From NCBI GenBank assembly GCA_964610875.1, contig CAZSWP010000044.1, positions 1 to 30,713 of the forward strand: a stretch of DNA of 30,713 nucleotides. Reading direction: 5' to 3'. This stretch comes from an uncultured archaeon (GTDB lineage: Archaea; Asgardarchaeota; Thorarchaeia; Thorarchaeales; Thorarchaeaceae). The stretch's first letter is position 1. Each line of letters opens with the position of its first letter. The notes below the pieces were generated by a model. The model worked only from the letters and a program-made list of their open reading frames with translations. It had not been told where the DNA came from and did not search any database. A program made the position numbers and the translations under genes. Shown here piece by piece: positions 1 through 30,713 of the stretch.

Positions 1-110
1 GTGCAATCGATTCAGGTTGCGTGAAGGACCTTACCCTTTCCTCATGCTGTTGAGCGCCCTTTTCATTTTTCATATTTTTAGTCAGATGAGTGGAATTTAG
101 GTCTAGGATT
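1..110 (+). repeat. rRNA-tail repeat copy R1 (cut by window start)
   Basis: GTGCAATCG..GGTTGCGTGAAGGACCTTACCC..CTGTTGAGCGCC-T tract-TTAGTCAGATGAGTGGAA..TAGGTCTAG, shared with six other copies. Confidence 0.93.
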
Positions 111-209
111 TCTTCCTTAGTAGATATCCAACACTAGTTTCATGAGTTTGCATTCAATGTGCATCTTTATATCACTCAGAATTGAAAGATGTACTGAGGT
201 CTTGAGCCA

Positions 210-401
210 GTGACAGATAGAACAATATCAATCTCAGAGGAGTTCTATGGAATATTACAGAAGCTGAAGCTTCCTGGTGAAAATCTTGAAGATACTATTC
301 TCCGTTTATCTGGTTTGAGATCTCGAGGAGCGGATTTTGAAAAAGCACTCGATAAAGTCCTCACCGAGGATGCTGAGCTTCTTGAAAGATTGGCACAATG
401 A
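210..401 (+). CDS. Antitoxin (VapB/DUF217-like DNA-binding N-terminus) paired with Doc
   Basis: TISISEEFYGILQKLKLPGE..DTILRL N-terminus; C-terminal AELLERLA helix; directly upstream of Doc; TTTATAT box at ~165. Confidence 0.8.
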   Translation: MTDRTISISEEFYGILQKLKLPGENLEDTILRLSGLRSRGADFEKALDKVLTEDAELLERLAQ

Positions 402-424
402 ATGATATCCTCTGGTGAAACTAT

Positions 425-808
425 TTGAGATATTTGACCTTTGATGAAGTACTTACAATCCACAGGAAAATGATTGCTGTATTTGGTGGTGAGAGTGGTG
501 TTCTCTCTCAAGAAGGACTGGAGAACTGCTTAGCACTTCCAATGATGTCTGTATATGGGACAGAAACAAATCCTTCATTATGGGAAAAAGCAGCATCACT
601 ACTACACTGCCTTGTTACAAGACATCCCTTTGTTGATGGTAATAAAAGAACTTCATGGGCTGCTGCCAAAGTATTTCTACTGCTCAATGGTTTCAGACTG
701 TCTACAGAACACGATGATGGTGAACAAACTATTTTGAATGTGATTAGTGGAAAAATCAACAAAGATCAGCTAGCAGACTGGATTGAATCCCATTCTAACA
801 GAATTTAG
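425..808 (+). CDS. doc: Death-on-curing (Doc/Fic family) toxin
   Basis: HPFVDGNKRT Doc-type Fic motif; MRYLTFDEVLTIH start; GGTGA SD before TTG. Confidence 0.9.
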   Translation: MRYLTFDEVLTIHRKMIAVFGGESGVLSQEGLENCLALPMMSVYGTETNPSLWEKAASLLHCLVTRHPFVDGNKRTSWAAAKVFLLLNGFRLSTEHDDGEQTILNVISGKINKDQLADWIESHSNRI

Positions 809-832
809 TATATCCAATTCAGATCACCCGAC

Positions 833-906
833 GGACCTTACCCTTTCCTCATGCTGTTGAGCGCCCTTTCATTTTGTATTGTTTAGCTAGATTGAGTAGA
901 ATCTAG
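833..906 (+). repeat. rRNA-tail repeat copy R2 (5'-truncated)
   Basis: GGACCTTACCCTTTCCTCATGCTGTTGAGCGCCCTTT identical to R1, starting ~25 nt after doc stop. Confidence 0.92.
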
Positions 907-1073
907 AAAAGACCTCTCTTCCTCAAAGTCTTCAAGTTGAGTTTTCACAATCAAAATCATATCCTGACAGTTGATTTTCTCGTAAAACCTCTCTCTTGAT
1001 GATCGAGCTTGATTTAGCCAACACACAATGCAGCTTATATATCTACATATACATATATAGACAGTGATTCTCA

Positions 1074-1322
1074 ATGCCTTCAAAGACCATTTCTGTGACA
1101 CTGGATGTGTACAATCTCCTCAAGAAGATGCGACTCCCTGGAGAGAGTTTTGGAGATACGATTGCTCGTCTATGTAAGGGGAAGACATCGGAAGCGTTGT
1201 ATCTGTGGACACAAACCTCTGATGGTTGGACTGACCTGACAAAGGAGGAGTATCGCCTTCTTGACGAAACACTTCGCGATGTCCAAGCATCATTCCAAGA
1301 AGAACGAGTTGATTTGAGTTGA
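1074..1322 (+). CDS. vapB: VapB-family antitoxin (DUF217-like)
   Basis: KTISVTLDVYNLLKKMRLPGESFGDTIARL; overlaps start of PIN gene. Confidence 0.85.
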   Translation: MPSKTISVTLDVYNLLKKMRLPGESFGDTIARLCKGKTSEALYLWTQTSDGWTDLTKEEYRLLDETLRDVQASFQEERVDLS

Positions 1323-1726
1323 TATTTCTAGACACTACTTTCTTGGTGGATGTTCTACGGAAGGATGCAGGTGCACTATCATGGTTAGCGAAGACTGATG
1401 AAATTGCCCTCTATACCTCTGAGATCAATGTGTTTGAGCTCTATACAGGGCTATTTCGATTATCATCTAAGTCTGAATCTTTTCTACGAAAGCGAAGGCT
1501 GGAACTTGAGCAAGTTCTTACTCGGATGGAGGTTCTCCCATTTGAGAGATCAGCTGCCTTAGAATCTGGGAAGATACTGGCACAACTTCTAGCAAAAGGA
1601 AATCCTATTGGCTCAAGGGATGTGATGATTGCTGGAGTTTCCCTTGCAAATGGTATACAAAGAGTTCTAACACGAAATGTCAGGCATTTCAAGGTAATTC
1701 CTCGAATGGATGTAGAAACTTACTAG
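1319..1726 (+). CDS. vapC: VapC PIN-domain ribonuclease toxin
   Basis: IFLDTTFLVD..E..DVMIAG..LTRNVRHF PIN motifs. Confidence 0.92.
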   Translation: MIFLDTTFLVDVLRKDAGALSWLAKTDEIALYTSEINVFELYTGLFRLSSKSESFLRKRRLELEQVLTRMEVLPFERSAALESGKILAQLLAKGNPIGSRDVMIAGVSLANGIQRVLTRNVRHFKVIPRMDVETY

Positions 1727-1817
1727 ACAGAGGAATAGGATGCACGATTGTCTAAATTCGTCCGCGAAAATAGTTTCATTTTTTATGACTGGTATTATGG
1801 TCGATACTATGTGTTGT

Positions 1818-1933
1818 CTTTGAACGGGACAGTGTAATTGTTTCGATTGCGTGAAGGAGCTCATCCTTTTCTCATGCTGTTGAGCGCCCTTTCATTTTTC
1901 AGATTCACCTGATGAGTAGTAGCTAGGTTTCTA
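1818..1933 (+). repeat. rRNA-tail repeat copy R3 (diverged; may extend left to ~1790)
   Basis: GTGTAATTGTTTCGATTGCGTGAAGGAGCTCATCC..CTCATGCTGTTGAGCGCCCTTTCATTTTTC..GATGAGTAG..CTAGG. Confidence 0.88.
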
Positions 1934-2000
1934 ATCGAATCCATAGCATGTTCTAGTCACTTTCCAATGAAATTATAAGTAGTTATTAGCATTATAAGAT

Positions 2001-2198
2001 ATGATAGATATGGGAGAAACTACTACCATTCCTCTCTCTAAAACGACACGGGACCAATTGAAAAAATATGGGCGTAAAGGAGAAACCTATGACGAACTGA
2101 TACTCCGGCTTCTTGAGATAGCAGAACAGATGGAGTTTGTTGAAAGACAGAAACGCATTCTATCTGAAGAGGAGTTCGTTCCACTTGACCAAGTTTGA
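2001..2198 (+). CDS. Antitoxin of RelE toxin (start may be ATG 2010)
   Basis: TTIPLSKTTRDQLKKYGRKGETYDELILRL, acidic C-terminus, overlaps RelE gene. Confidence 0.8.
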   Translation: MIDMGETTTIPLSKTTRDQLKKYGRKGETYDELILRLLEIAEQMEFVERQKRILSEEEFVPLDQV

Positions 2199-2466
2199 AG
2201 TTTTCCTCTCTCAGACAACGGTTTCACAACTGAGCTTACTTGACCACAAACAAGTTAATCGAGTAAAGACTGCTCTTAGCGACCTTGCAATCAATCCCTT
2301 TCAAAAACGATCTGGAATTGACATCAAGAAATTGATGACCAAAGATGATCCTCCCCTGTTCAGACTACGCGTGGGGGATTATCGCGCAATCTATTTTGTA
2401 GTTAACCAAGAGGTAAGAGTTACAGAGATTCTCCACAGAAGTAAAGCATACAGATGGTTGGACTAG
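2185..2466 (+). CDS. relE: RelE/ParE-family toxin
   Basis: FRLRVGDYRAIY and EILHRSKAYR motifs; start moved to TTG 2185 behind GAGGAG SD. Confidence 0.88.
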   Translation: MTKFEVFLSQTTVSQLSLLDHKQVNRVKTALSDLAINPFQKRSGIDIKKLMTKDDPPLFRLRVGDYRAIYFVVNQEVRVTEILHRSKAYRWLD

Positions 2467-2524
2467 ATTCTAAATAATACACTTTAGAATCCAATGTATG
2501 TAGTTCTGTATAGAGCATTTCCAA

Positions 2525-2590
2525 CTCCACGGTTGAGCGCCTTTTCATATTTTAGTCAGGTGAGTGGAACCTAGGTCTACTGCCACTGTT
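2525..2590 (+). repeat. rRNA-tail repeat copy R4 (shortest)
   Basis: CTCCACGGTTGAGCGCCTTTTCATATTTTAGTCAGGTGAGTGGAACCTAGGTCTA. Confidence 0.9.
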
Positions 2591-2620
2591 TCCCCATGTT
2601 CTTCGGTGTTGATATGCACT

Positions 2621-2650
2621 GAGTTTATATGTACTCATATGCATATGTAT
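2621..2650 (+). promoter_or_regulatory. TATA box with overlapping palindromes (probable autorepression operator)
   Basis: GAGT-TTATATGT-ACTC and perfect palindrome CATATGCATATG (2636-2647) before ATG 2661. Confidence 0.55.
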
Positions 2651-2660
2651 ATTGATTATT

Positions 2661-2903
2661 ATGGCGAAGAATGTGGCATTGGCTGATGACGTCTACAGTG
2701 ACCTCAAGCGTCTAAAGCGTAAGGATGAGAGTTTCAGCGATGTGATTCGTAGATTGCTTCGGACGAGAGGTACGATTGCAGACCTTGCAGGGTCTGAAAC
2801 GCTTAGTTTAGAAGAATGGCTGAAGATGAAGAGACTCAAAGAAGAACAGGCAGAAACCGATGAGAAACGAGCGGATGTCCTTCTCTCACAACAAGAAGGG
2901 TGA
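2661..2903 (+). CDS. vapB: VapB-family antitoxin (DUF217-like)
   Basis: KNVALADDVYSDLKRLKRKDESFSDVIRRLL. Confidence 0.88.
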   Translation: MAKNVALADDVYSDLKRLKRKDESFSDVIRRLLRTRGTIADLAGSETLSLEEWLKMKRLKEEQAETDEKRADVLLSQQEG

Positions 2904-2911
2904 ATGTACTA

Positions 2912-3316
2912 ATGCCCATTTTTGATACGAGCTTTCTCATTGATCTTACTAGAGGCGACGAGGGAGCAGTAGCCATAGCAAAACAAGTTGACAGCGGGTC
3001 TGATTTCAAAGCAGTGTCAGTCGTGACAGTCCACGAGTACCTTAGAGGTGTGTTCTATCATCATGTTGGGAAGAAGTCTTTAGACAAGAAATTACGCAAA
3101 GCACTCACTGATTTAGCACATTTTGAACAGCTTGAATTCACGTCAACCATTGCTCGGGAAGCAGCTCTATTGGATGCAAATCTTTTCCGAAAGGGAAACA
3201 TGATTCCATATGCAGATGTAATAATCGCCGCAACAGCTATTCATCACAAGTCTTCTCTTGTTACAAGAGATACGCATTTTCAGTCCATAGGTGACCTTGA
3301 CATAATTGAGTATTAG
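2912..3316 (+). CDS. vapC: VapC PIN-domain toxin
   Basis: PIFDTSFLID..HE..DVIIAATA..LVTRDTHF; GGGTGA SD before ATG 2912. Confidence 0.92.
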   Translation: MPIFDTSFLIDLTRGDEGAVAIAKQVDSGSDFKAVSVVTVHEYLRGVFYHHVGKKSLDKKLRKALTDLAHFEQLEFTSTIAREAALLDANLFRKGNMIPYADVIIAATAIHHKSSLVTRDTHFQSIGDLDIIEY

Positions 3317-3322
3317 AGTGTT

Positions 3323-3402
3323 GAAGTGTAAGAAATACTTCGTAGCGGATGCTGCGGATGGAAGAAGACGAGAGTCATTCTCGCTTCCATCAATCACCTC
3401 CT
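3323..3402 (+). pseudogene. Decayed 16S rRNA 3'-terminal fragment
   Basis: GAAGT-GTAAGAA..TTCGTAGC-GGAT-GCTGCGGA-TGGA[insert]TCACCTCCT versus universal AAGTCGTAACAAGGTA-helix 45-TGGATCACCTCCT. Confidence 0.8.
3363..3393 (+). other. Putative 31-nt bulge-helix-bulge intron in the 16S fragment
   Basis: Central helix GATG(3357-60)/CATC(3388-91), bulges GA^A and AA^T, intron stem GAAG/CTTC plus CGAGA/TCTCG; ligation gives GGATGGATCACCTCCT. Confidence 0.75.
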
Positions 3403-3540
3403 AGGATCTCTACTTTTTAGAGGTAGAGCAGCTTGGTTCTGGCAATCCTCTGGATTACTGGAAGAGGTACAGGCCTTCGATGGGATAGTGCAATCGTACA
3501 GGTTGCGTGAAGGACCTTACCCCCCTCCACTGTTGAGCGC

Positions 3541-3557
3541 CCTTTTTCATTTTTCTT
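3541..3557 (+). terminator. Archaeal U-rich terminator-like tract (equivalent tract follows GTTGAGCG in every copy)
   Basis: CCTTTTTCATTTTTCTT. Confidence 0.55.
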
Positions 3558-3610
3558 TCATCATTTATCCACTAGACATAGAAATTGTTCTTTTAAAATT
3601 CATGTACAAC

Positions 3611-4806: not shown

Positions 4807-5907
4807 CTATTCAGGCAGTGGTGTTCCTCCCCCGCCGCCTCCACCTCCACCAGGAAGTGTCACATAGGTATAATCGCTTCCCAGATAGTGATTCGATGAA
4901 TCATATGCTTTAACCTTGACTCTCATTTGTACATAACCCGTAAGTAACGACCATGAAACATAGTAATCTCCACTTGTATATGGTGTGTAGTCAATTCCCA
5001 CATACATATCACTAGTCCAATATCCCGAACTAGTCTTGTATTTGACATAGACCTTGACATAATCCATAGCAGTATAGTGATTTACACGTACATAACCTGT
5101 GACACCATTTGACTCCCATGCATTATAGATGAGATTGGATGCAGGTATCGGGTCATTGCTATCCAGAGGATCATATCCCCAAGCTATTTCATTTCCATCA
5201 CTTATGATATCTTGGTCTGTACTCCATAGTAGCGGATTTGTTCCATATGCAAACTCGTCCGAGTCGGAAATAGCATCATCGTCGGTATCACTATCCAATG
5301 GATCAGTTCCGTGGATTAAGACTTCATTGGCATCTGATAAATCATCATTATCTGTATCCCAATCATTTGGATTTGTACCATATACGTATATCTCCAAATC
5401 ATCTGAGAGTCCTTCTCCATCTGTATCCGGTCCGCTTGTTAGCCAATCTGAAATATCATCATATGTTTCTTCGTTTTCAGGGTCATTTATCAGTAGTCCA
5501 TGTGATACATCATAGAATTGACGATTGGTTTCCGCATATGATAGATATGCTCTGGACTCACCTACGATAGGGTCACTGTATTCACCATGAATACTTAGCA
5601 ATAGGAGTCCCCATGCTGGGTCTATTCCCGCACCTGTATACCACCTAATTCCATCAGAATAAGAACTCGGATCATCATTTAAATTGTCAATGAGTTGAGA
5701 GTGAGGTGCAAGTGACCAAAAAACTGGACTTGGCCAAAGATTTCCATTATCCCCAATATAACCTCCAATTAATGACATTATAAGTGACCAAGAGTTTAAT
5801 GGATCAGCTAAGCATGTACCATCATTTGGAGTTCCCATTGTTATTACAGTACCAATGTCAATACGTGAAGACTCTAGTTGCGTGCTATGATCCATCAACA
5901 TTTGACG
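4807..5907 (-). pseudogene. C-terminal half of split alpha/beta-hydrolase with DxDxD Ca-binding repeats
   Basis: RQML..IGTVITMGTPNDGT, D.IV and H motifs, DTDxDxLSD..E...GT.P repeats; 5' end abuts the mobile element and joins in frame to 23804-24631. Confidence 0.88.
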
Positions 5908-6097
5908 GGTCGCGAACAGATACTAATAATCAGGACAAACCTTGACATTGTTGTGTAGGTGCTTATATAGGACCGGTAAGGATATTTTAGTGAGGGTGTC
6001 TTGACACACGATCTTACCCTCGCAAAGCCAGTCCCAGTACCGTTGTCTGGGAGGACAAAGCTTTGGTGTCCAGATCTGTCCAACTTACAATGAACGG
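5908..6097 (+). mobile_element. 190-bp non-autonomous IS607-like element, copy A
   Basis: Identical to the reverse complement of 24630-24819 except 2 nt; GG at both junctions; no terminal IR; right end TGTCCAGATC-TGTCCAACTT..GAACGG; left end has 10-bp spaced GACA motifs. Confidence 0.85.
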
Positions 6098-6150
6098 TTA
6101 GAACTGGTTTCATAAGATAATAACCAATCTATTAACGTCAAGACATTTAC

Positions 6151-7240: not shown

Positions 7241-8212
7241 CTAATTTGACGGAGGACCAGGTGTGATTTCCAGTTCCCTTACAAATTCTTTGTAACGATT
7301 ACGAACCGTCACTTCTGTTACGCCTGCAGCTGCTGCAATCTCTCTTTGTGTGGCACGATTCTCAGTTAGAATGGATGCAATATAGATGGCAGCGGCTGCA
7401 AGACCTCGCGGATCTCTTCCGGTCAACAGACGCCCATGTTCTTTAGCATCCTGAAGAATATTAAGAACCACATTCTGCATGTTACCACTCACTGATAATT
7501 GGGAGAGGATTTTTGGTACATAGCTCTTAGGATCAGGAATAGGCATTTTCAACTTCATTTTGCGAGCTAGAAGACGATAGTGTCGTCCAATCTTTTTCTT
7601 ACTAATTCTCGAATAATGTGCAATTTCCTCTAATGAACGAGGAATCTGTCGTAATCTGCATGCCGCATAAATTGCAGCTGCCACCATTGCCTCAATCGAC
7701 CTACTACGAATAAGCCGTTTGAGTATGGCTTTTCGATACAACATTGCTGCGAGTTCTTTTACACTCTTCTTCAACTCCATCTGAGACGCTAATCTATCCA
7801 TCTCAGATAATGCTTGAGCCAAGTTCCTTTCAGCAGAACTGTGTATACGGGTTCGTATCTGCCATTTTCTCAAACGATGAATCTCAGCACGTCGCTTCCC
7901 AGAGAGTTTTCTTCCTGATGAATCCCGATCACGCCAGTCTATACGTGTCGAGAGACCCTTGTCATGAATTGTATATCTTGTTGGTGCACCAGTTCTTGCT
8001 CGTGACCGCTTTTCTTCAGCAGTAAAGGCTCTCCATTCGGGACCCATATCGATACTGCGTTCGCTAACAACTAATCCACAGCTGGCACAAACCAGTTCAC
8101 CTGTTCTGGGTTTTCGTATAGCTTTTGTTCCAGAGCATTCGGAACATCTAAACTCTTCACTCTCTCTAGTACTTCTTTTTCGCTCTTTGGGATGGGTTGG
8201 TCCAGACTTCAT
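7241..8212 (-). CDS. tfb: Transcription initiation factor IIB (start uncertain, ORF open to 8281)
   Basis: Zn ribbon CSEC..GELVCASCG, GPEWRAF, two cyclin folds, GVTEVTVRNRYKE. Confidence 0.95.
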   Translation of the reverse strand: MKSGPTHPKERKRSTRESEEFRCSECSGTKAIRKPRTGELVCASCGLVVSERSIDMGPEWRAFTAEEKRSRARTGAPTRYTIHDKGLSTRIDWRDRDSSGRKLSGKRRAEIHRLRKWQIRTRIHSSAERNLAQALSEMDRLASQMELKKSVKELAAMLYRKAILKRLIRSRSIEAMVAAAIYAACRLRQIPRSLEEIAHYSRISKKKIGRHYRLLARKMKLKMPIPDPKSYVPKILSQLSVSGNMQNVVLNILQDAKEHGRLLTGRDPRGLAAAAIYIASILTENRATQREIAAAAGVTEVTVRNRYKEFVRELEITPGPPSN

Positions 8213-8378
8213 TACATAAATCCTGCATTCTTGGACTGCTTCTGATGGATTATTCGAAATCACCAATACTGGTATCATCAATCTCTTGAGGTCAGTAAGG
8301 TCTCTTACTATAGTCCAATTATCATTTAACGCGAGGGCATATTAAACCCACGACACATGCCAATATGGTGTTGTTCAG

Positions 8379-16060: not shown

Positions 16061-19000
16061 TTAACCTGATTGTCGTTTTCTCAATAGCATCACTGCCATA
16101 ACTAAAACAATGATGCCGCCTCCTGCACCTGCAACAATAATTATTGTACCCAGACCATCATCAGTTGGAATATCAGATGTTGTGGTGGTTTCAGTTGTGT
16201 CATCTGTTGTTTCAGTCGTGGTGTCAGTTGTTGTATCAGTTGTAGTGGTTGTGCTTGTAGTTGTGGTGTCAGATGATGTGACAGTAACTATGACTGAGTC
16301 GCTTGAAAATAGTCCACACTCTGAATAAACAATAAGAGTGAAGTTGTATATACCAACATCAAGACCATCAAGCGATACTACAATGTTTGAACCGTCCCAT
16401 TCACCTGAGGCAGATACACTTCCATTGAGCAATATCTCATAGGAGTCCGGATATGAATCAGAAACTATCCAAGTGATTGATTCTCCTTCGGAACCTTCCG
16501 TAAAGGATACATCATCTGGATGGTTGATCTCAGGTGTACTCAGAGCCATTACCGTGAGGAATACTGTATCAGAGGAGCAATTATTACTATCAGAGAATAC
16601 AACAAGGGTCAGATTATATACACCCACTGCAAAGTCATCCACATCTATTTCAATGTCAGTGCCATCCCATTCTCCAGAGTTTTCCAGTGTTCCATTGACA
16701 TAGAACTCAAAACTATTGGGATATTGAGAAGATACGTCCCAAGACACCAGGTTACCATTAGACCCATACCAATACCAGAAATCTTCAGGTTGGTCAATCT
16801 CAGGAATGGTTCCGGTTTTCACCGTAAGGAGGACTGTATCATATGTCTGGTTGTTGCTTTGAGAATACACAAAAAGTGTTAGATAATGGAGACCGACTGA
16901 GAGACCGTCTACATCTATCTCGATATCAGTCCCATCCCATGGACCTGAGGCCTCTATTGTTCCGTTGATATAGAACTCGAAACTATCAGGGTATGTGCAA
17001 GAAGCATTCCAGACTACGGAGTGTCCATCGGTGCTATACCAATACCAGAAATCTTCAGGTTGGTCAATCTCAGGAATGCTTCTGGCTCTCACTGTCATGA
17101 AAACGGTATCTGATGCGTTATTACCACATCTAGAATACACAATAATGGTCACATTGTAGACCCCAACATCGTAACCATCCATAATTCCTTCAACACTGCT
17201 TCCGTCCCAACCATATGGACCATAGTAAGTATCATTGAGATAGACTTCCATAAAATCGGGGTCCGAAGATGCAGCATCCCACATGATAGTATTGCCTTTA
17301 TCACCATACCAGTACCAGAAATCAGCAGGATGGTCTATTGTAGGAGTCGTGATTTCAATGACTTCAATTACAACAGCGTCATGATTTGATGATGCGAAAT
17401 ATGATGTCAAGTATATTGTATAACAATAATAACCAGGAGAAAGACCATTCAGATTCACTACTACGGGACCACCGGTCCATAAACCTCCAAATTGAAACGA
17501 TTCATTCATGTAAACCTGATAGGACCGGATGTAGCTTGAAGGACTTGTCCAAGTTATAGAATTGCCAACACTTCCTTCATTAAATGTTTGATTGGCAGGA
17601 TTACTGATGACAATAGTGTAACCCGGGAGACTATTTGGAAAACCATCAATAGATCCACCTGTGCCAGGAACTTCGTATATTCCGCCACCATAGTAGTCAG
17701 ACCAAGTGTTCCCATACATGACATCATCATCCCAAAAGTTGCCAGCAGAATCATCCTGAGCGTTATTGTCGGAATTCCCACCAAACTCGTTGAGATAGAA
17801 TAAATTGTTTGTACTTGATTGGACCAGAACACCAAGTGAGTTATTGAAGAAACCACTGTTGGTAACATTACAGTTGTTTGCTCTATACAAGTTCAAACCA
17901 TGATCACAATCAATGACAAGAGTGTCATTAATGGCAACACCATCTGACCCGTAGAGATACAGACCTGTTTTAGTACTATTGATAACATTCAAACCCTCAA
18001 TCTGGAGATCATGCGAGTTCTCTGCGTATATGCTATACTTTGAACAATTCCATACTTCTGAATTAAGGATCACTGAATCTTCAGATTGATACAGATAGAG
18101 ACCATAGTATTCGGAGAAGGATGAATTCACATTGGATAACGATGCATTGTGTGATTGAGTCAAATATAATCCAGCACGTGCACTCTCCGTGACTGTGAAG
18201 TTTTCAATGGAGCAATGAGTGCTGTTGTAACTTCTCAACCCATCGTACACATCACTCAGAGAATAGTTTGCCACTGTTACATTGTAGCAAGATGCAAGGT
18301 ATAACGGAATTGAAACCTGTGCCATCTCATGTCCCTTAATTGTACTATTCTCACAGTATAGAAGGAAAATTTGCCCATAGTCCGAAGCATCAATCTGAAG
18401 TTCATGTTGATTCTTGAAGTATCCTATGGGTAACCCACCAACCGTATTGCCAGTCATTGTATGGTTATAATAAGCGATATTGTCATTGTTGATGATAATA
18501 ATACCCGTACTGCTGAATGTGTTGGAGTAAATCTCCAAATCCCGAGAAGAGAACAACCGTATACACGCAGAGTTACCTTGGACCATATTAGCTTCAAGAA
18601 TGCCACTACTGATACTGGACAATGAGATTCCTACATCACTAGCAACAATTTCATTATCTATTATACTGAAATTCTGACATCTGTATAGTTGAATCGCATC
18701 TTCAATATCATCGACCAATATGTTATCTTCAAGACGGATATTATCAGACCAAGAAGCGTAAATCGCATTGTCAGACATTTTTGACATAGTGTTGTTTGTT
18801 ACGATACAGTCGTATGAATCTTGGATCGATATCCCATCATGTGTGATGTTCAAGGCCTCGTTTTTGTTAATGATAGAATTATCAGAATATTGCAAATGGA
18901 ATCCTGTACCATACCCTTCAGCATAGCAATCGGTGATATTCATTGATGTCGAATGGTCACCAGAGACTGCTACTCCATTATAGCTCTCATAATAGAATTG

Positions 19001-21106
19001 ACTACTTATCACATTACAATCTTCGGAATAGAAGAAGAGTAAACCTTTGCGGCACCCATCAATCAGTAAAGAAGAGACAGAGCAGTTGCTTGAGAAAGCC
19101 ATTACGTAGCCCACAATTGATTTTGTTAAACTACCACCAGTAGTCGATACATTCTCAGAGTCTACGATAAATACCTGTCCAGCAGAGGTCAAATCATAGT
19201 TAACATCGGATTCATTCACTAGATAGTAAATCGACTTGCCTAATACTGTATTATCCAGTGTAATCTCGTGAAACCAATATTCACGTAACTCCCCTTCAAC
19301 ATAAAGGCCGCCAGAATCCAGTGTGTTGTTATCCAGATAGCAGGCAGTGGATTGGTCCAAGTAGATTGCGGCATCATCCATATTCGTTATCTGATTATCT
19401 TTGATTGTTACGTCACTGCTATCTTCAACATAGATTCCTTCATAGTTAGTTTCGGGGCTATAGTTGTCATCTATCGTGTTCCGAATAAGTGTGACATTCG
19501 TGCTTGATTCCACGTAGATAGCATGACCACGATTGAACTGAAAAGATGAGTCTGAAACGGTGACATTGGTGACATCCACCATTCCGATTGACCCGGACCT
19601 ATAGAGTTCAAGATTATCGAATTCAAAGAAATTGCAGGAGCTTAGTGCAATACCTCCAGCATCTGAAATACCAGATAGTTTCACAAGTCCGTAATAACAT
19701 TCCCTGAAATAGAATTCTCGGCCCGAATTGCCTTCAGCAATAGTCCACCAAATTTGAGTGTGATTTGAGTAGTTGATCTCGTATCCTTCATATCCAAAGG
19801 TCTGTGCGTTGTCATATGCTCTACATTCCCAAATGAAAGTATCATTATCAAAACTGAATGCGAAGCCAGAGTGTTCATTGAATTCAGAAAAGCAAAACCT
19901 TACCTGGGATTCATAGCATTCATGTATGTAGAAGCCATCGCCCTCATTCGCGGATGAGTTGCAGTAGTCCAATTCTGTGCGATTGCTTTGCCAGACGCTA
20001 TATCCATCGTCCCAATTATCATAAGCAATGCAATTATTGAACTTCGTATCGAGTGTACCACGGTCATAGTATCCGTAGTTGTTGTAGAACGCAATATTAT
20101 CACGCACAATGGTATTGTTGGAATAGAGAATACCAATTCCTGCGATATCATTATTGTTAGAAACAGTATTATTCTGAACAGTACAATCTAGTGAGTCCTC
20201 TATTAGGATTCCATAATCGTTGTTTGTTTTACCTAACGAGCTATATACAGTATTGTTCCTAAGAATCACCTCTGCGGATTCCGAAACTGTGATTCCGTTT
20301 ATCAATTGGTTTGCAACACTATTATGACTGATATTACATTGACTACAGCTTAGAATCTGAATACAGTCTTTACCATCATTCCCATCAAATGTATTATACT
20401 CAGCAACCACGTCTATGGATGTGTATAGATACAACATACTCCTGAACAGAATATTATCTATGGCATTTGTTTCATTTGAATTGATGATCTGGATACGTGA
20501 CCATGTTACATTGTTACCTATGATATGCGAATAATTACACCCCGTTAATTTGATATCAGGAATACCAGTCCAATAAGAACCCTGGACTGTGTTTCCGGTA
20601 AGGTTAGCATATGGACAGTTAGTCAGATAGATAGAAGAGGCTCTAATATCGTAAGAATAGGCATCAATAATTGTAAGATTTGAAGAACCAGTCGCTTCAA
20701 CTATTTTTGAAACGTTATAGAAGATGCATCCTTCGATGGTGACATGAGATGCATTATCGAGAACTATCGCATCAGCTCCAAAAGGTTCACCTGTTACAGT
20801 TCTAAAGAAACAGTCCCTTATTACACAATATGCATCAGTATCTGTTATGTTGATGAGTGCGTCAGCACCAGTTATGTTCCGACCCTCGAAGGTATACGGC
20901 TGTTCAGCAGTGCCTAATCCACTGAAGTTCGTGACAAAGTCATCATTACCAACAACTGTGAATGTTGGATGCTCCACATAGGAAATGAGTTTCTCATCTA
21001 CAGGTGCAGTATCCAATTCTACCTGAGAGAAATCAGATAGAACGGGTATCACCAAAAGAAATAGAATAGAGAGTATAATTAAGGGTCTTTTCATAGCAAA
21101 TCCCAA
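16061..21106 (-). CDS. 1681-aa cell-surface protein: parallel beta-helix (NosD-like) repeats, ~5 Ig-like 90-aa repeats, Thr-rich linker, C-terminal TM anchor
   Basis: Signal peptide; many GI.L..S.N..I..N repeats; PEIDQPEDFWYWY..W repeats with 270-bp period; poly-Thr; TM helix plus RKR. Confidence 0.9.
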   Translation of the reverse strand: MGFAMKRPLIILSILFLLVIPVLSDFSQVELDTAPVDEKLISYVEHPTFTVVGNDDFVTNFSGLGTAEQPYTFEGRNITGADALINITDTDAYCVIRDCFFRTVTGEPFGADAIVLDNASHVTIEGCIFYNVSKIVEATGSSNLTIIDAYSYDIRASSIYLTNCPYANLTGNTVQGSYWTGIPDIKLTGCNYSHIIGNNVTWSRIQIINSNETNAIDNILFRSMLYLYTSIDVVAEYNTFDGNDGKDCIQILSCSQCNISHNSVANQLINGITVSESAEVILRNNTVYSSLGKTNNDYGILIEDSLDCTVQNNTVSNNNDIAGIGILYSNNTIVRDNIAFYNNYGYYDRGTLDTKFNNCIAYDNWDDGYSVWQSNRTELDYCNSSANEGDGFYIHECYESQVRFCFSEFNEHSGFAFSFDNDTFIWECRAYDNAQTFGYEGYEINYSNHTQIWWTIAEGNSGREFYFRECYYGLVKLSGISDAGGIALSSCNFFEFDNLELYRSGSIGMVDVTNVTVSDSSFQFNRGHAIYVESSTNVTLIRNTIDDNYSPETNYEGIYVEDSSDVTIKDNQITNMDDAAIYLDQSTACYLDNNTLDSGGLYVEGELREYWFHEITLDNTVLGKSIYYLVNESDVNYDLTSAGQVFIVDSENVSTTGGSLTKSIVGYVMAFSSNCSVSSLLIDGCRKGLLFFYSEDCNVISSQFYYESYNGVAVSGDHSTSMNITDCYAEGYGTGFHLQYSDNSIINKNEALNITHDGISIQDSYDCIVTNNTMSKMSDNAIYASWSDNIRLEDNILVDDIEDAIQLYRCQNFSIIDNEIVASDVGISLSSISSGILEANMVQGNSACIRLFSSRDLEIYSNTFSSTGIIIINNDNIAYYNHTMTGNTVGGLPIGYFKNQHELQIDASDYGQIFLLYCENSTIKGHEMAQVSIPLYLASCYNVTVANYSLSDVYDGLRSYNSTHCSIENFTVTESARAGLYLTQSHNASLSNVNSSFSEYYGLYLYQSEDSVILNSEVWNCSKYSIYAENSHDLQIEGLNVINSTKTGLYLYGSDGVAINDTLVIDCDHGLNLYRANNCNVTNSGFFNNSLGVLVQSSTNNLFYLNEFGGNSDNNAQDDSAGNFWDDDVMYGNTWSDYYGGGIYEVPGTGGSIDGFPNSLPGYTIVISNPANQTFNEGSVGNSITWTSPSSYIRSYQVYMNESFQFGGLWTGGPVVVNLNGLSPGYYCYTIYLTSYFASSNHDAVVIEVIEITTPTIDHPADFWYWYGDKGNTIMWDAASSDPDFMEVYLNDTYYGPYGWDGSSVEGIMDGYDVGVYNVTIIVYSRCGNNASDTVFMTVRARSIPEIDQPEDFWYWYSTDGHSVVWNASCTYPDSFEFYINGTIEASGPWDGTDIEIDVDGLSVGLHYLTLFVYSQSNNQTYDTVLLTVKTGTIPEIDQPEDFWYWYGSNGNLVSWDVSSQYPNSFEFYVNGTLENSGEWDGTDIEIDVDDFAVGVYNLTLVVFSDSNNCSSDTVFLTVMALSTPEINHPDDVSFTEGSEGESITWIVSDSYPDSYEILLNGSVSASGEWDGSNIVVSLDGLDVGIYNFTLIVYSECGLFSSDSVIVTVTSSDTTTTSTTTTTDTTTDTTTETTDDTTETTTTSDIPTDDGLGTIIIVAGAGGGIIVLVMAVMLLRKRQSG

Positions 21107-21673
21107 TCCGGCGTCTATCTACAAAAAGAGAGATTTTATTGCTTTCTACTGTAGTGGCGCTGATCAAACGTTAGGAAGGGAAAAACATCATCATTATTTA
21201 AATTATTTTATTAAAAATCCGAATTATGATAGTCTTATTTGAATTATTATCAGTTGATAGCATAGAATTCTGGAATGCCTTTTTGGTTCCAAAAACTCTC
21301 AGAGCTTACGTATCAGTGCAACCCAGCTATTTTATTGTTGTGTCTAGAAGAAATTTTGGGAGTTTTCAAAGAACGCTTAGATTCGTTTGTCACTAAATAC
21401 TTTGGAACAGACGAGAAGACATCATCGAGAGTAGCCGATTTTGATTCACTCTTGCAATAACTCCAAATTGTTCTCAAGAGAATCAGAATACAATGGTAGC
21501 ATACCTAGAATCCTCTCAACTAAATTAAATAATGAAAGAACGCTCAACAGTGGAAGGGGTAAGGTCCTTCACGCAACCTGTACGATTGCACTATCCTATC
21601 AAAGCCGGTACCCCTTTCACAGTCCCAAAGGACTGCGAAACAAGCTGCTTCTACCTCTAGAGATAGAAATCTT

Positions 21674-21834: not shown

Positions 21835-22089
21835 ATGGGTCTGAAAGCAGAAGGACAAATTGGAAAGAAGCATACAATATATCTCCCAAAGGCGGTTGTT
21901 GATGAAGCAAATCTTGAGGTAGGCATGAAAATCATAATCACAGTTGAGGGAAACAAAATCATCATCGAACCAGTACCCGACCCTATTTCCCTCGCTATTC
22001 ACGGAAAGAAGTTCGCATCAATGACATTAGAACAGATTGAGGCAATTAGTCTTGAAGAACAATCAAAGCATGCAGAAGATTCTTCTTGA
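21835..22089 (+). CDS. AbrB/MazE/SpoVT-family antitoxin
   Basis: GQIGKKHTIYLPKAV..L.VG..I...VEG.KIIIEP. Confidence 0.88.
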   Translation: MGLKAEGQIGKKHTIYLPKAVVDEANLEVGMKIIITVEGNKIIIEPVPDPISLAIHGKKFASMTLEQIEAISLEEQSKHAEDSS

Positions 22090-22504
22090 TACCTCTTTCT
22101 TGCTTCCGACACTTGGAGTTGAAGTAGAGGCAGAGGTGATAAGAACTCTTTCAAAGATCAATCTTGAGAAAATCCATCTATTCTATTCCAATTGGAGCCT
22201 GCTTGAAAGTAGCTGGATTGCAATACAACAAATCAAACAAGGAACATATCAAGCACCTCTGTTCAGGAAAGGACTCCTAAGTATAACAAAAACAGAGGTC
22301 TATCAACATATTCAGGCAAGTCCAGATGACTATCTGAATGCCCTTGATTTCTACCAAAAAGGGCATCCGGATATGATTGACAATATGTTGTATGTGACAG
22401 CCCTAAGAAAGCAATATCGATTTCTCACAATAGATAGTGAATTTATGGAATTTATTTCCGAGAACGATATCGAGGACATTGTAGTCACTCCAAAAGATTT
22501 CTGA
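22070..22504 (+). CDS. vapC: PIN-domain toxin
   Basis: ILLDTSFLLP..SLLE..DMIDNMLY..FLTID; overlaps antitoxin. Confidence 0.88.
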   Translation: MQKILLDTSFLLPTLGVEVEAEVIRTLSKINLEKIHLFYSNWSLLESSWIAIQQIKQGTYQAPLFRKGLLSITKTEVYQHIQASPDDYLNALDFYQKGHPDMIDNMLYVTALRKQYRFLTIDSEFMEFISENDIEDIVVTPKDF

Positions 22505-22531: not shown

Positions 22532-22714
22532 ACTTCATCAAACGTCAAATATCTCAACGAGTTTCACCAGAGGACATCATTCATTGTGCCAATCTTATAA
22601 GAAGCTCAGTATCCTCGGTGAGGACCTTATCGATTGCGATTTCAAAATCCACTCCCCGATATCTCAAACCAGATAAACGGAGAATCGTATCTTCAAGATT
22701 TCCAGCAGGAAACC
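22532..22714 (-). pseudogene. Relic of the antitoxin-doc operon (homologous to ~268-450)
   Basis: Reverse complement aligns at roughly 85-90% by eye; covers the antitoxin 3' part, spacer and first ~9 doc codons. Confidence 0.9.
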
Positions 22715-23803: not shown

Positions 23804-24631
23804 ATGACCAAAAAAAGTAGAACACTTACTATCATAGTATGTCTATTGTTTTTTCAATCGGTTTGTTTTAGTTTCATGACTGATACTCATGAGTATCCTG
23901 CAATATGGGTTGTTGAAATTGGGGAAATAGACTCGAATACGGAACTGGCAATAGATACTACACTAAATCAGATTCAGAAATATGAGTTACTAGTGAAAGT
24001 TATCGATTTTTCAAAGATAAACAGAGTATCTAAGGGAAACATTGTTGTACTAGTTGGTCATGGTGCACCTGAAGGTGTTCAAATTCATGACGAAACAGTA
24101 AATTGGGATGTATTATATCAAGGATTATTGGAAATTGAACCTTCTAGAGCAATAGTTTTAGCTTGTTATGCACCCTCAGTCCCTGAGAAATCAATATTCG
24201 GTTTTAATGGTGTTGTTGATGCTGTAGCAGGAGGGCTGTTAGCAACATGGCTCATGTCAGAAGCTTTTGATGAACCTGTTATCAAGGACATTCCTTTTGG
24301 AGAGATAATCGAAGCTCAAAGGAACATGCTTCATCCGCTAGCGAGAATACTGTATTTTGTGCACAGCTATTATGGCAGCACAGCGGATTTCGCGGATTTG
24401 ATACAATCTCTATTTGTAGAGGGTGATATGGGCTCTGAATATTCAACCTATCAAACTTTTTCATATTACTCGGCTTACGGTGTATCTGATGATGATCCTG
24501 ATGCAATAAACATACTTCATTATACAACCAGCATTGAAGATTATGGAGATGATTTGTATGACGAATTGAGTCAATATCCTTCAGGAACCCAGATTAATTT
24601 TGTAGCTCATAGTATGGGAGGAATTATTACC
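23804..24631 (+). pseudogene. N-terminal half of split secreted alpha/beta-hydrolase
   Basis: Signal peptide; LYFVHSY; ends at nucleophile elbow FVAHSMGGIIT where the mobile element begins. Confidence 0.88.
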
Positions 24632-24819
24632 GTTCATTGTAAGTTGGACAGATCTGGACACCAAAGCTTTGTCCTCCCAGAGGACGGTACTGGGACTGGC
24701 TTTGCGAGGGTAAGATCGTGTGTCAAGACACCCTCACTAAAATATCCTTACCGGTCCTATATAAGCACCTACACAACAATGTCAAGGTTTGTCCTGATTA
24801 TTAGTATCTGTTCGCGACC
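24630..24819 (-). mobile_element. 190-bp IS607-like element, copy B (inverted relative to A)
   Basis: CC-GTTCATTGTAAG..CTGTTCGCGA-CC. Confidence 0.85.
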
Positions 24820-24851
24820 CTTTTATATACATAAACCTCCCATAATTGCAA

Positions 24852-25667
24852 ATGATACTATCTCGATTTACAACGATTCTTCTGTTGTGCTGTCTGATTA
24901 CACTAACGATAGCAACTCCAAGTATTACTCCAGTTAATGCGTTGGAGATGGAGTATTTTCCTCTCGCGCCGGGTAATACTGTAATCTACAATTCAACAAA
25001 CGACGATGGTACATGGACAACAAAACGATATGTAGCTGATGAAACAGAGTTTCTTGGTGGGCCATATGGTACATTAACAGTTCTGTGGACTGAAGCACAT
25101 ATGCAACTTGATGAAACGGACTACACATTTGTAAATCAAATGTGGCTAAGCAAGACAGCGGACACATTACTGTGGTGGGGATTTGAAGACACCTCTGACA
25201 AGGTAATTGCTACAACTGGTCTGAACTACGTCACTGAACCAGTTGAAGTTGGAGCAGTTCATAGTGGAACTACAACTGTTACACTAACCATCAAAGAAAC
25301 AGATACAGTGATGACTGGAGTGTCATTTAGTGCAAATTACACAATAGAAGCAATAGAAGATGTGACTGTTCCCGCAGGCACGTTTGAGGATTGTATTAAA
25401 ATCCATGAAGAGGAGATTACACCTGATGGTGAAGTCAGCTTTTGGGTTTGGTATGCGCCTAATGCAGGAGCTGTACAGTATTACTATCCTCAACAGGAAA
25501 ATCGTTGGGATAAAGCCACGGAATATACAGTAGACCTCGATAATGATCCATGGGATGATTGGTTCCTTCCGCAGGTTCCAACAATGCTTCTGTATACTAC
25601 AATTTCGGTAATTGTAGTCGTAGGATTGATTATTGGATTTAAACTGATGAGGAAGAGGACAGCATAA
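24852..25667 (+). CDS. Secreted, C-terminally anchored beta-rich protein
   Basis: Signal peptide, YFPL..G, EDVTVPAGTFEDCIKI, WYAP..G.V, C-terminal TM helix. Confidence 0.8.
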   Translation: MILSRFTTILLLCCLITLTIATPSITPVNALEMEYFPLAPGNTVIYNSTNDDGTWTTKRYVADETEFLGGPYGTLTVLWTEAHMQLDETDYTFVNQMWLSKTADTLLWWGFEDTSDKVIATTGLNYVTEPVEVGAVHSGTTTVTLTIKETDTVMTGVSFSANYTIEAIEDVTVPAGTFEDCIKIHEEEITPDGEVSFWVWYAPNAGAVQYYYPQQENRWDKATEYTVDLDNDPWDDWFLPQVPTMLLYTTISVIVVVGLIIGFKLMRKRTA

Positions 25668-25706: not shown

Positions 25707-26651
25707 TTACGGCATCAAAGAGATATTCAGACCCTTGACCATGTCTTTGTAGCGATTTCGTACGGTCACTTCTGTAACGTTTGCAGCATCTGCAATTTCT
25801 CGTTGGGTTCTTCTATCATCTTCAATAATACCAGCTATATAGATTGCCGCAGCTGCTATACCACTGGGATCTTTTCCTGCAGTCAAACCTTTACCTCTAG
25901 CTTCAGTAATAATCTCTGCAGCTCGGGTCACAGTTCTTCCAGACAACTTAAGATCGGATGAAATCCTGGGAAGGAATCCTTTCGCTGAAGGCAGTGGAAC
26001 ATGAATATTGAGATGCTGTTGAATCATTCTAACACATTTACCAATCTGCCGTCTGTCTATCTTGGCTTCCTTTGCCACCTCATCAAGCTGTCGAGGTCGT
26101 TTATGTATTCGACAGGACAGATAGAGTGATGCTGACACCATTCCATCAATACTTCTACCACGTACAAGACGCTTATCCAAAACTTTTCTGTACACCAAAG
26201 CACCTGTTTCCACGGTTTCTCGTGATATGCCTAATTGTGAAGCTAGTCGTTCAATCTCGTTCATAGCAATCTGAAGATTTCTCTGCTTGGAACCATGAGC
26301 CCAACTTCTTCTCTGCCATTTTCTCATTCGATAGAGCTGCGCTCTTCGCGATCCACCAATTGACCTTCCGGATGCATCTCTATTTGCTCTGCTTATTCGT
26401 GTGGCTAGACCCTTGTCAGCAATAGTGTATCTTGTAGGAGCTCCTGTTCGCTCTCGGTTGTTCCGTTCTTCAGCAGTAAAAGCCCTCCATTCAGGCCCGC
26501 TGTCAATGATTCCACTTGACATCACAAAGCCACATGAAGTGCATACGCGTTCTCCACGTGACCTATCCCAATGTAGTTCTTTGGAACCGCACACTGTGCA
26601 ACTAAGTGTTTCTTCTTTCTCGCGACCGGCTTTTCTGGTAGTCTCTGTCAT
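25707..26651 (-). CDS. tfb: Transcription initiation factor IIB, second paralogue
   Basis: CTVC..GERVCTSCG, GPEWRAF, GKDP, VTEVTVRNRYK. Confidence 0.95.
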   Translation of the reverse strand: MTETTRKAGREKEETLSCTVCGSKELHWDRSRGERVCTSCGFVMSSGIIDSGPEWRAFTAEERNNRERTGAPTRYTIADKGLATRISRANRDASGRSIGGSRRAQLYRMRKWQRRSWAHGSKQRNLQIAMNEIERLASQLGISRETVETGALVYRKVLDKRLVRGRSIDGMVSASLYLSCRIHKRPRQLDEVAKEAKIDRRQIGKCVRMIQQHLNIHVPLPSAKGFLPRISSDLKLSGRTVTRAAEIITEARGKGLTAGKDPSGIAAAAIYIAGIIEDDRRTQREIADAANVTEVTVRNRYKDMVKGLNISLMP

Positions 26652-30650: not shown

Positions 30651-30659
30651 TTCTATACG

Positions 30660-30713
30660 GGTCGCGAACAGATACTAATAATCAGGACAAACCTTGACAT
30701 TGTTGTGTAGGTG
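30660..30713 (+). mobile_element. IS607-like element copy C (left end only, cut by window end)
   Basis: Identical to 5908-5961. Confidence 0.85.

Follow-up and report, generated by a model that had tools for sequence, protein, structure and literature searches.

The locus described here, a 30,713-nt stretch of a Thorarchaeota genome (hereafter the window) in which toxin-antitoxin (TA) cassettes stand between copies of a 16S rRNA gene end, has traits in common with several known systems, and it is these shared traits that we give for each system here. In the accretion of elements at the 3' ends of tRNA and transfer-messenger RNA (tmRNA) genes, the end of a stable-RNA gene serves as the landing site and the gene stays intact, displaced partial 3' copies bound successive blocks as direct repeats, and older blocks decay. 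Casposons have a Cas1-family integrase (casposase structure 6opm, PMC6977970), insert at the 3'-distal part of conserved genes and reuse the site; tandem and partly inactivated elements have been described, including a tandem arrangement at tRNA-Leu in Methanosarcina (PMC4779613). Sedentary chromosomal integrons and clusters of attC sites lacking integron-integrases (CALINs), including Asgard ones, are long arrays of small co-oriented cassettes with many TA pairs and similar repeats (PMC9668308). At the aCas1-TnpB loci of Asgard archaea (Cas1H-Asgard-1 and -2), a TnpB with a rearranged RuvC-II site adjoins a Cas1 homologue, repeats flank the locus and a TTCACTCA-like motif lies downstream of tnpB; the passages on these loci name no target and describe no cassette arrays, and the term rRNA has 0 occurrences in the main text (PMC10691335). 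HeimM2 of Heimdallarchaeum is an Asgard mobile element directly behind the only 16S gene, between it and tRNA-Arg; the passages on it present a single 8-kb element with a homing-endonuclease homologue and propose a nuclease that specifies the site (PMC8813620). We found no published description of arrays of 16S tails such as those reported below, nor of a Cas1-like/TnpB element linked to them.

The window is the complete contig C44 of a 3.75-Mb metagenome-assembled genome (MAG; G000) in 124 contigs, with an estimated completeness of 95% and contamination of 5.8%; its TFIIB genes are part of the evidence for assigning it to Thorarchaeota, an Asgard lineage. A sequence-only reading of it had proposed an integron-like platform of TA cassettes growing directly behind a 16S gene. 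Exact GTTGAGCG cores are found on the + strand at 49, 856, 1879, 2532 and 3532 and on the - strand at 21541 and 23577; these seven compare with 0.38 expected in the window, and none of 100 shuffles contained seven or more. All seven sit inside copies (W1 to W7) of a single repeat family, whose extents we measured by alignment to the long copy at 3331-3600 (the reference). Every copy retains the 3' part, and the copies start at reference positions 158, 179, 152, 195, 1, 11 and 172, respectively. The cores, the common 3' part with its differing start points and the four different TA operons on the + strand are thus as the sequence-only reading had them, Pfam confirming Doc, PIN, RelE/ParE-type and PIN pairs.

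We identified the repeat by comparison with relatives, in which 16S genes were located with the Rfam model RF01959. Of 24 genomes sampled from the same family, 11 match the long-copy sequence, and in four relatives whose 16S gene is assembled the match directly follows that gene or overlaps its end. The 16S ends of relatives run in the order helix 45, usually an insert of ~31 nt, TCACCTCCT, and a trailer of ~130-180 nt with the core and a T-run at its end. The complement of the core is present in the 16S leader of four relatives, and leader and trailer pair over their full length with duplex energies of -99 to -142 kcal/mol, which places the core at the base of the pre-16S processing stem. Judged by this comparison, the repeat combines the final 30-75 nt of the 16S gene (~60 nt in the long copies of the window) with the 3' strand of the predicted processing stem. 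The core is conserved across genera because it forms the stem base, and no role in recombination is needed to account for this. The proposal that the repeat is a 16S 3' end with its trailer, and that the long copies open with 16S terminal sequence, is therefore upheld: four relatives' 16S genes end in the long-copy sequence, with the same helix 45, and the resident trailers of relatives end in the same core.

The repeat search of this and related genomes also bears on the reading of the repeat as an insertion sequence (IS) end scattered genome-wide. In G000 the repeat is confined to six contigs (C44, C63, C68, C78, C111 and C122), mostly at their ends, and a scattered IS end is ruled out by this restriction. 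An Rfam search of the whole window at E<=1 gave no match, as the 16S fragments fall below the length that its models require; ARAGORN detected no tRNA either. A scan of contigs from many genomes for the helix-45 motif also matches unrelated Patescibacteria 16S genes. Extension of the long copies into 16S by local alignment is noisy, with W6 alone continuing weakly (~64%) through an insert-like stretch. In the long copies, a 31-nt hairpin insert (3363-3393 and its counterpart in W6) lies between GGATGGA and TCACCTCCT; it is absent from the resident 16S ends of G003 and G042 and from the examined copies of G008. The displaced copies of G002 have features in common that its resident tail lacks, and comparison of these copies with the resident tail revealed no identity gradient along the array, so that the age of a cassette is not readable from divergence.

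In five relatives (G002, G003, G042, G046 and G055), the one assembled 16S gene is followed downstream by arrays of tail copies that are oriented as it is, the older copies being 5'-truncated and farther away. A position of the array directly behind 16S is correct in outline, but a module made up of a giant gene and a tnpB gene usually intervenes. Where 16S and tnpB share a contig, as in these five relatives, the common order is 16S, tail, giant gene, tnpB, guide units, and cassettes with displaced tails; in G003, G042, G046 and G055 the giant gene following the trailer is convergent and the displaced tails beyond tnpB come with cargo. The exception is G002, where 16S is followed by the trailer, a 240-aa stub of the giant gene, a mercury-resistance-like block of ~5 kb, a partial tail, the full giant gene, tnpB and a short tail at the contig end. 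Another G002 contig, C14, ends in the same short tail and has at least 11 further co-oriented copies. The G002 island (contig C2, 4033-9166), with an ArsR-like regulator and a MerA-like reductase among open reading frames (ORFs) read by eye with no Pfam run, directly follows the 240-aa stub and lies between the resident 16S trailer and the displaced partial tail.

RF01959 detected no assembled 16S gene in the MAG of the window. Contig C78 of this genome carries a trailer end at its edge, followed by a convergent giant gene and tnpB in the same order as in most of the relatives, and the missing 16S gene most likely lies beyond this trailer edge. The sequence-only reading had placed 16S, as probable, just left of position 1 of the window. 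Instead, contig C63 in reverse complement and the start of the window share an exact overlap of 55 nt, the sole one of its kind among the array contigs, which suggests that C63, not 16S, lies there. C63 is 13 kb of the same array, in the order PIN toxin gene (truncated at the contig end, its DNA 89% identical to the toxin gene of cassette 4), long tail, HicBA, tail, three surface-protein genes, tail with a giant-gene stub, ABC transporter (by eye) and tail. Part of it duplicates window positions 2895-3524 with 89% identity.

The TnpB encoded on C78 belongs to the RNA-guided TnpB family (NCBIfam NF040570, Pfam PF07282) and has the RuvC-I Asp and the RuvC-III NADxN motif. Its nearest orthologues (64-69% identity) occur in seven other genomes, behind 16S in five and on contigs with trailer pieces in two (G074 and G024), and paralogues at 55-58% identity are found neither behind 16S nor on trailer-piece contigs. 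In five genera the orthologues share the strand of 16S and are found ~4-6 kb past its trailer, except that in G002, which is among the five, the distance is ~11 kb because of the mercury island. In the five genera and in G001, whose TnpB is more distant, the giant gene stands between trailer and tnpB, convergent on 16S; in G074 it stands beside tnpB. Paralogous pairs of giant gene and tnpB are also present on contigs C18, C3 and C37 of G000.

The giant protein is 1600-1700 aa in length. Sequence searches of Pfam, NCBIfam and PDB gave no match, Atlas gave weak leads only, and all of the sequence relatives are unnamed Thorarchaeota proteins. We used a structure model of residues 1-560 (predicted local distance difference test score, pLDDT, 81; alignment of 15 sequences) for a fold search. 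Residues 1-217 match the Cas1 catalytic domain with a Z score of 13.4 and a root-mean-square deviation of 3.7 A over 179 aligned residues, and the top 45 entries, each counted once, are all Cas1 or casposase with Z >=8.8. Residues ~325-560 match Cas4/AddB/Exo5-type nucleases with Z 6-6.8. As modeled, the giant protein begins with a Cas1-like domain that is followed by a Cas4-like domain. Among its relatives the Cas1-like part has invariant H...D..D residues and the second part a D...E-x-K motif, and we infer from this conservation that these residues are catalytic.

Downstream of the tnpB genes, a conserved scaffold ends in GGTCGG and is followed by one to three short guide-like units. As in IS200/IS605-type elements, guides are combined with a fixed transposon-associated motif (TAM): four guide classes follow GGTCGG, and all four targets are preceded by GGAT or GAAT (the GRAT flank) in uninterrupted 16S alleles. 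The targets are sites within the last 200 nt of 16S, two per strand, with matches of up to 25 nt; the match of the C78 unit is 15 nt. In other 16S alleles, inserts or substitutions interrupt the guide site exactly at that point. Since four sites with the same four-letter flank are very unlikely by chance, we take the short units to be guides, and the system that they belong to as directed at the 3' domain of 16S. The guide-target search for the other TnpB paralogues of this genome yielded nothing bearing on the array.

The start points of the displaced tails bear on the same targets. Long displaced copies in eight upstream contexts and five genera start within ~15 nt of the 16S GTCG/TAAC/AAGGTATCC position, which is the TAM-proximal side of one guide target. 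TnpB cuts distal to its TAM, and starts of this kind are the pattern that would be expected from a cut plus the erosion of a few bases. The common breakpoint coincides with the insert site too, so that a reading by cutting and a reading by insertion fit alike. Simply illegitimate joining at one end, as had been supposed, does not agree with the clustering of long-copy starts at one guide-matched position.

Stubs of the giant gene's 3' end are found after tails in the window (45 aa, Table 1), on C63 at 8008-8298 (97 aa) and after the resident tail of G002, and shorter look-alikes follow W4 and the copies on C68 and C111. By sequence match, a giant-gene remnant certainly follows one tail copy in the window (W6) and perhaps a second (W4). 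The stubs indicate that tails have been duplicated along with the sequence behind the resident trailer.

Cassettes homologous to those of the window occur in the arrays of other genera, with 67-80% DNA identity over a stretch that opens ~35-50 nt before the antitoxin start and closes at the toxin stop. The conserved ~35-50 nt before each antitoxin start suggest that cassettes probably carry their own promoters. Comparison of cassette content and order downstream of 16S among relatives, which the sequence-only reading had called for, reveals adjacencies that are in part common to genera and in part different. The order RelE, short tail, cassette 4, long tail is common to G000 and G002, as are an inverted AbrB-PIN pair followed by a long tail and a long tail followed by HicBA; G008 differs in having Doc directly before cassette 4. 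Cassette 4 has extra partial copies as well: C63 carries its toxin-gene end with 89% DNA identity, and C111 its promoter and start. The C111 copy (1-267, cut by the contig end) has the same right junction and a tail ~100 nt longer than W4, so upstream truncation differs among copies of one cassette. Behind the TnpB guide units of relatives, ORFs read by eye include Doc and PIN TA genes, restriction-modification genes and other defence-type genes. Defence-type cargo directly behind 16S-linked TnpB guide units, likewise read by eye, lies at 2296-5699 of contig C31 in G046 and at 1499-9856 of contig C131 in G055, and comprises a DNA methyltransferase-like gene, a neighbouring candidate restriction gene, a DUF262-like gene and an ATPase gene.

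Set beside the systems described above, the locus departs from each of them. Unlike in tRNA/tmRNA accretion, the target is the 16S end with a trailer of ~130-180 nt, the repeats are up to 220 nt long, and no tyrosine or serine integrase was noticed in the blocks, the candidate engine being a Cas1-like protein with TnpB. An intact RNA gene with blocks bounded by displaced direct copies is found in the same five relatives that have an array behind 16S, and copies only are found in G000. The Cas1-family integrase shared with casposons is a likely one and, unlike theirs, occupies the N-terminal part of a protein of 1600-1700 aa that also has a Cas4-like domain and is paired with TnpB and guides; no family B DNA polymerase (PolB), terminal inverted repeats or 14-15-bp target duplication were noticed in the modules of C78 and the relatives, in which no dedicated search for them was made. 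TnpB beside a Cas1 homologue with flanking repeats is present on C78 and in the modules of five relatives, the window holding the 45-aa stub only; here 16S tails serve as the flanking repeats and the 16S gene is what the guides match, unlike in the passages of PMC10691335 on the aCas1-TnpB loci. The passages of PMC8813620 on HeimM2, by contrast with our locus, describe no tail duplications or array.

Small, co-oriented, TA-enriched cassettes are a trait common to the locus and to integrons and CALINs, and the integron-like platform of the sequence-only reading is apt as to outcome, a cassette array. It does not extend to an attC-type fold or an IntI, the repeats come from the flank of an rRNA gene, and the cassettes probably have their own promoters. 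We rejected an attC reading after folding four copies on both strands as single-stranded DNA, which gave z values of -1.0 to +0.6 and no end-to-end hairpin. A tyrosine-integrase reading was likewise rejected: the only PF00589 match of the genome is on contig C52, outside the window, in agreement with the earlier statement that the window contains no integrase. Pfam searches of the ORFs of the window and C63 revealed no tyrosine or serine integrase, serine recombinase families not having been searched genome-wide, and no integrase was noted among the array ORFs of relatives, which were read by eye only.

The repeat identity, the arrays behind 16S in relatives, the conserved module, the GRAT-flanked guide matches, the stubs and the clustered breakpoints are observed. 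They make it probable, in our judgment strongly so, that displaced tails have accreted behind 16S. That the window is a distal, decayed stretch of such a 16S-anchored array, with the module as the likely entrant, is a reading toward which we lean slightly, and the role of the Cas1-like/TnpB module as the engine of accretion falls just short of an even prospect. On this explanation, the flank of an essential gene would be a landing site used time and again: new DNA would enter at the 16S end, bringing or regenerating a working 16S end and trailer, and the former end, its trailer and everything behind would be pushed downstream. The entering unit would most likely consist of the trailer, the giant Cas1-like/Cas4-like gene, tnpB, guide units and cargo. 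The site may be selected or cut by TnpB with 16S-matching RNAs, and the joining of the DNA may fall to the Cas1-like protein or to host repair. We infer that this order of events would have been followed by deletions that strip most of the selfish genes and leave a tail, a giant-gene stub and cargo. TA cargo would persist best, as its loss kills the cell, and TA pairs probably stabilise the array. Recombination between tail copies would reshuffle and delete cassettes.

A number of observations count against this explanation. The RuvC-II Glu of the C78 TnpB aligns to Gly, a kind of rearranged site that is predicted to be probably active in the passages of PMC10691335 that treat it. The domain matched to Cas1 is helical, and with such domains middling Z scores can be unspecific; the mapping of its catalytic residues is not rigorous, and the nuclease and integrase activities of the module are predictions from sequence and fold. 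Most tails in 1-3560 have a TA promoter within ~150 nt and at most a few giant-gene codons behind them, so that a deletion has to be assumed for every cassette if each is to stand for one former module. Tail copies cluster by genome, being more alike within a genome than at the same array position across genera, and gene conversion among copies or repeated local or independent events must therefore be assumed. The breakpoints of short copies are blurred by divergence. Finally, this MAG is without an assembled 16S gene, and the window is linked to 16S only through relatives, C78 and a single 55-nt overlap.

The alternatives account for parts of the same evidence. Recombination alone, the model of the sequence-only reading, might have joined the 16S end, trailer and cargo of another strain by homology on the left and end-joining on the right, with no dedicated nuclease or integrase and with the module as one more cargo or as a vertically inherited neighbour. 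The 16S body would offer 1.5 kb of near-perfect homology for this, left junctions do vary between copies, the likeness of tails within genomes shows that they recombine actively, and the window is without an integrase. Random breaks, however, would not give starts within ~15 nt of one 16S position in eight contexts; guides match this position and three others, all with the GRAT flank, beside a TnpB syntenic to 16S in at least five genera; the giant-gene stubs behind tail copies also speak against this explanation, which we regard as unlikely. Clustering of tails by genome can also be read as amplification in place, whereby an ancient duplication of the 16S flank would have spread by unequal crossing-over, with genes inserted later or left by differential deletion and no repeated import. 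The partly common cassette order and the duplicates within the genome (C63 and window 2895-3524 at 89%, C111 and cassette 4, and the Doc fragment) agree with it. The upstream contexts at the common breakpoint all differ, however, the cargo varies widely (the mercury island of G002, and the methyltransferase-like and defence-type genes of G046 and G055, by eye), and the features peculiar to the displaced copies of G002 fit replacement of the resident end, which together make amplification in place quite improbable.

Site-specific exchange of an integron-like kind, by an unidentified recombinase acting in trans on the GTTGAGC region, would draw on the match of the core to the integron R' consensus GTTRRRY, on the co-oriented, TA-rich cassettes with each tail near the preceding stop codon, and on the short tail that precedes cassette 4 in four genera with different upstream neighbours. 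Yet no copy folds better than its shuffles on either strand (z values as above), no inverse core was seen on reading the copies, the partner of the core lies in the 16S leader, the one tyrosine recombinase match of the genome is on a different contig, and the processing stem accounts for core conservation. We hold such exchange to be very improbable. An assembly artefact, or a miniature inverted-repeat transposable element or IS end unrelated to rRNA, is hardly credible and close to refuted: contigs do break at the repeat and the contamination estimate is 5.8%, but the architecture recurs in MAGs of many independent studies and genera and the sequence is continuous with real 16S genes. The proposal of a gene-capture array anchored on 16S accordingly stands in outline, and is to be amended as to the location of 16S, the dedicated module found elsewhere and the non-random breakpoints.

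The features of the window are listed in Table 1.

Table 1. Tail copies, cassettes and giant-gene remnants in the window. ref, positions in the long copy at 3331-3600.
Feature	Position	Strand	Basis and remarks
Tail copy W1	1-71	+	ref 158-225, 97%; cut by contig start, continues in C63:115-1
Cassette 1: VapB-type antitoxin 210-401, Fic/Doc toxin 425-808	210-808	+	Pfam PF02697, PF02661
Tail copy W2	817-884 (strict match 830-875)	+	ref 179-223; starts ~10-20 nt past Doc stop codon
Cassette 2: VapB antitoxin 1074-1322, PIN toxin 1319-1726	1074-1726	+	Pfam; DNA 80% identical to a cassette of relative G022
Tail copy W3	1826-1900	+	ref 152-225, 82%; most diverged copy
Cassette 3: DUF7557 antitoxin 2001-2198, ParE/RelE-type toxin 2137-2466 (longest ORF)	2001-2466	+	PF24434, PF05016; homologues in G002, G014
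Tail copy W4	2525-2552	+	ref 195-224; short, final ~30 nt of trailer
Post-trailer spacer and tentative remnant of last codons of giant Cas1-like gene (reverse strand)	2553-2605	+	Flank alignment; candidate with ~70% identity to C78, counted by hand
Cassette 4: VapB antitoxin 2652-2903, PIN toxin 2900-3316	2652-3316	+	Pfam
Long tail copy W5	3341-3560 (measured extent 3331-3600)	+	16S end + trailer
W5, helix 45	3341-3362	+	
W5, 31-nt insert	3363-3393	+	
W5, 16S terminus TCACCTCCT	3394-3402	+	
W5, trailer: GTTGAGCG core, plus T-run	3532-3539 (core)	+	
C-terminus remnant of giant Cas1-like gene	21362-21496	+	tblastn; 45 aa, 76% identical to C78 protein; convergent on W6
Long tail copy W6	21736-21528	-	ref 11-224, 90% identical to W5; begins at 16S ...AGGTATCC position
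Inverted cassette: AbrB/MazE-type antitoxin 21835-22089, PIN-like gene 22037-22504	21835-22504	+	PIN-like gene without Pfam match; cassette adjoins long tail in G002 too
Partial duplicate of cassette 1	22532-22711	-	91% identical to 271-450
Cassette: antitoxin 23434-23186, PIN toxin 23205-22750	23434-22750	-	Pfam
Tail copy W7	23615-23562	-	ref 172-227

The partial duplicate of the Doc cassette spans the end of the antitoxin gene and the start of doc, with no tail copies at its bounds. A 208-nt inverted repeat (96%) is formed by 5907-6114 and 24613-24820, with a third, direct copy at 30654-30713 at the contig end. An esterase (DUF676/DUF7379-like) domain is divided between two genes: its start, together with an N-terminal region, is encoded at 23804-24937, and its remainder at 4807-5901. 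An inversion between the 208-nt repeats, or a misassembly, seems to have split one esterase gene and flipped the segment with W6 and W7. The window also contains two TFIIB paralogues (7241-8281 and 25707-26651) with DNA stretches that are 76-81% identical, and, at 16061-21106, a gene for a 1681-aa beta-helix (NosD-like) surface protein with 270-nt tandem repeats at 16551-17350.

Tentatively, the observations may be drawn together as RNA-guided gene capture on the only 16S gene of Thorarchaeota. A selfish module of giant protein, TnpB and guides would cut rival 16S alleles, install itself with a replacement end and passengers, and leave the old tail behind, thereby building integron-like arrays of TA and defence genes over time; small 16S inserts would break the targets and so shield the resident. 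This offers a possible reason for the small inserts in Asgard 16S genes, and the repeats may partly explain the assembly breaks in this region. The aCas1-TnpB loci, so far without function, would gain a target and a consequence, and a parallel would emerge with the rDNA-targeting elements of eukaryotes. Builders of genome-insertion tools would also take an interest in an RNA-guided nuclease that is paired in nature with a Cas1-type integrase. If true, the arrays represent a third route to cassette arrays, besides integrons and tRNA-gene islands, and they are anchored on the one 16S rRNA gene of the archaea most closely related to eukaryotes.

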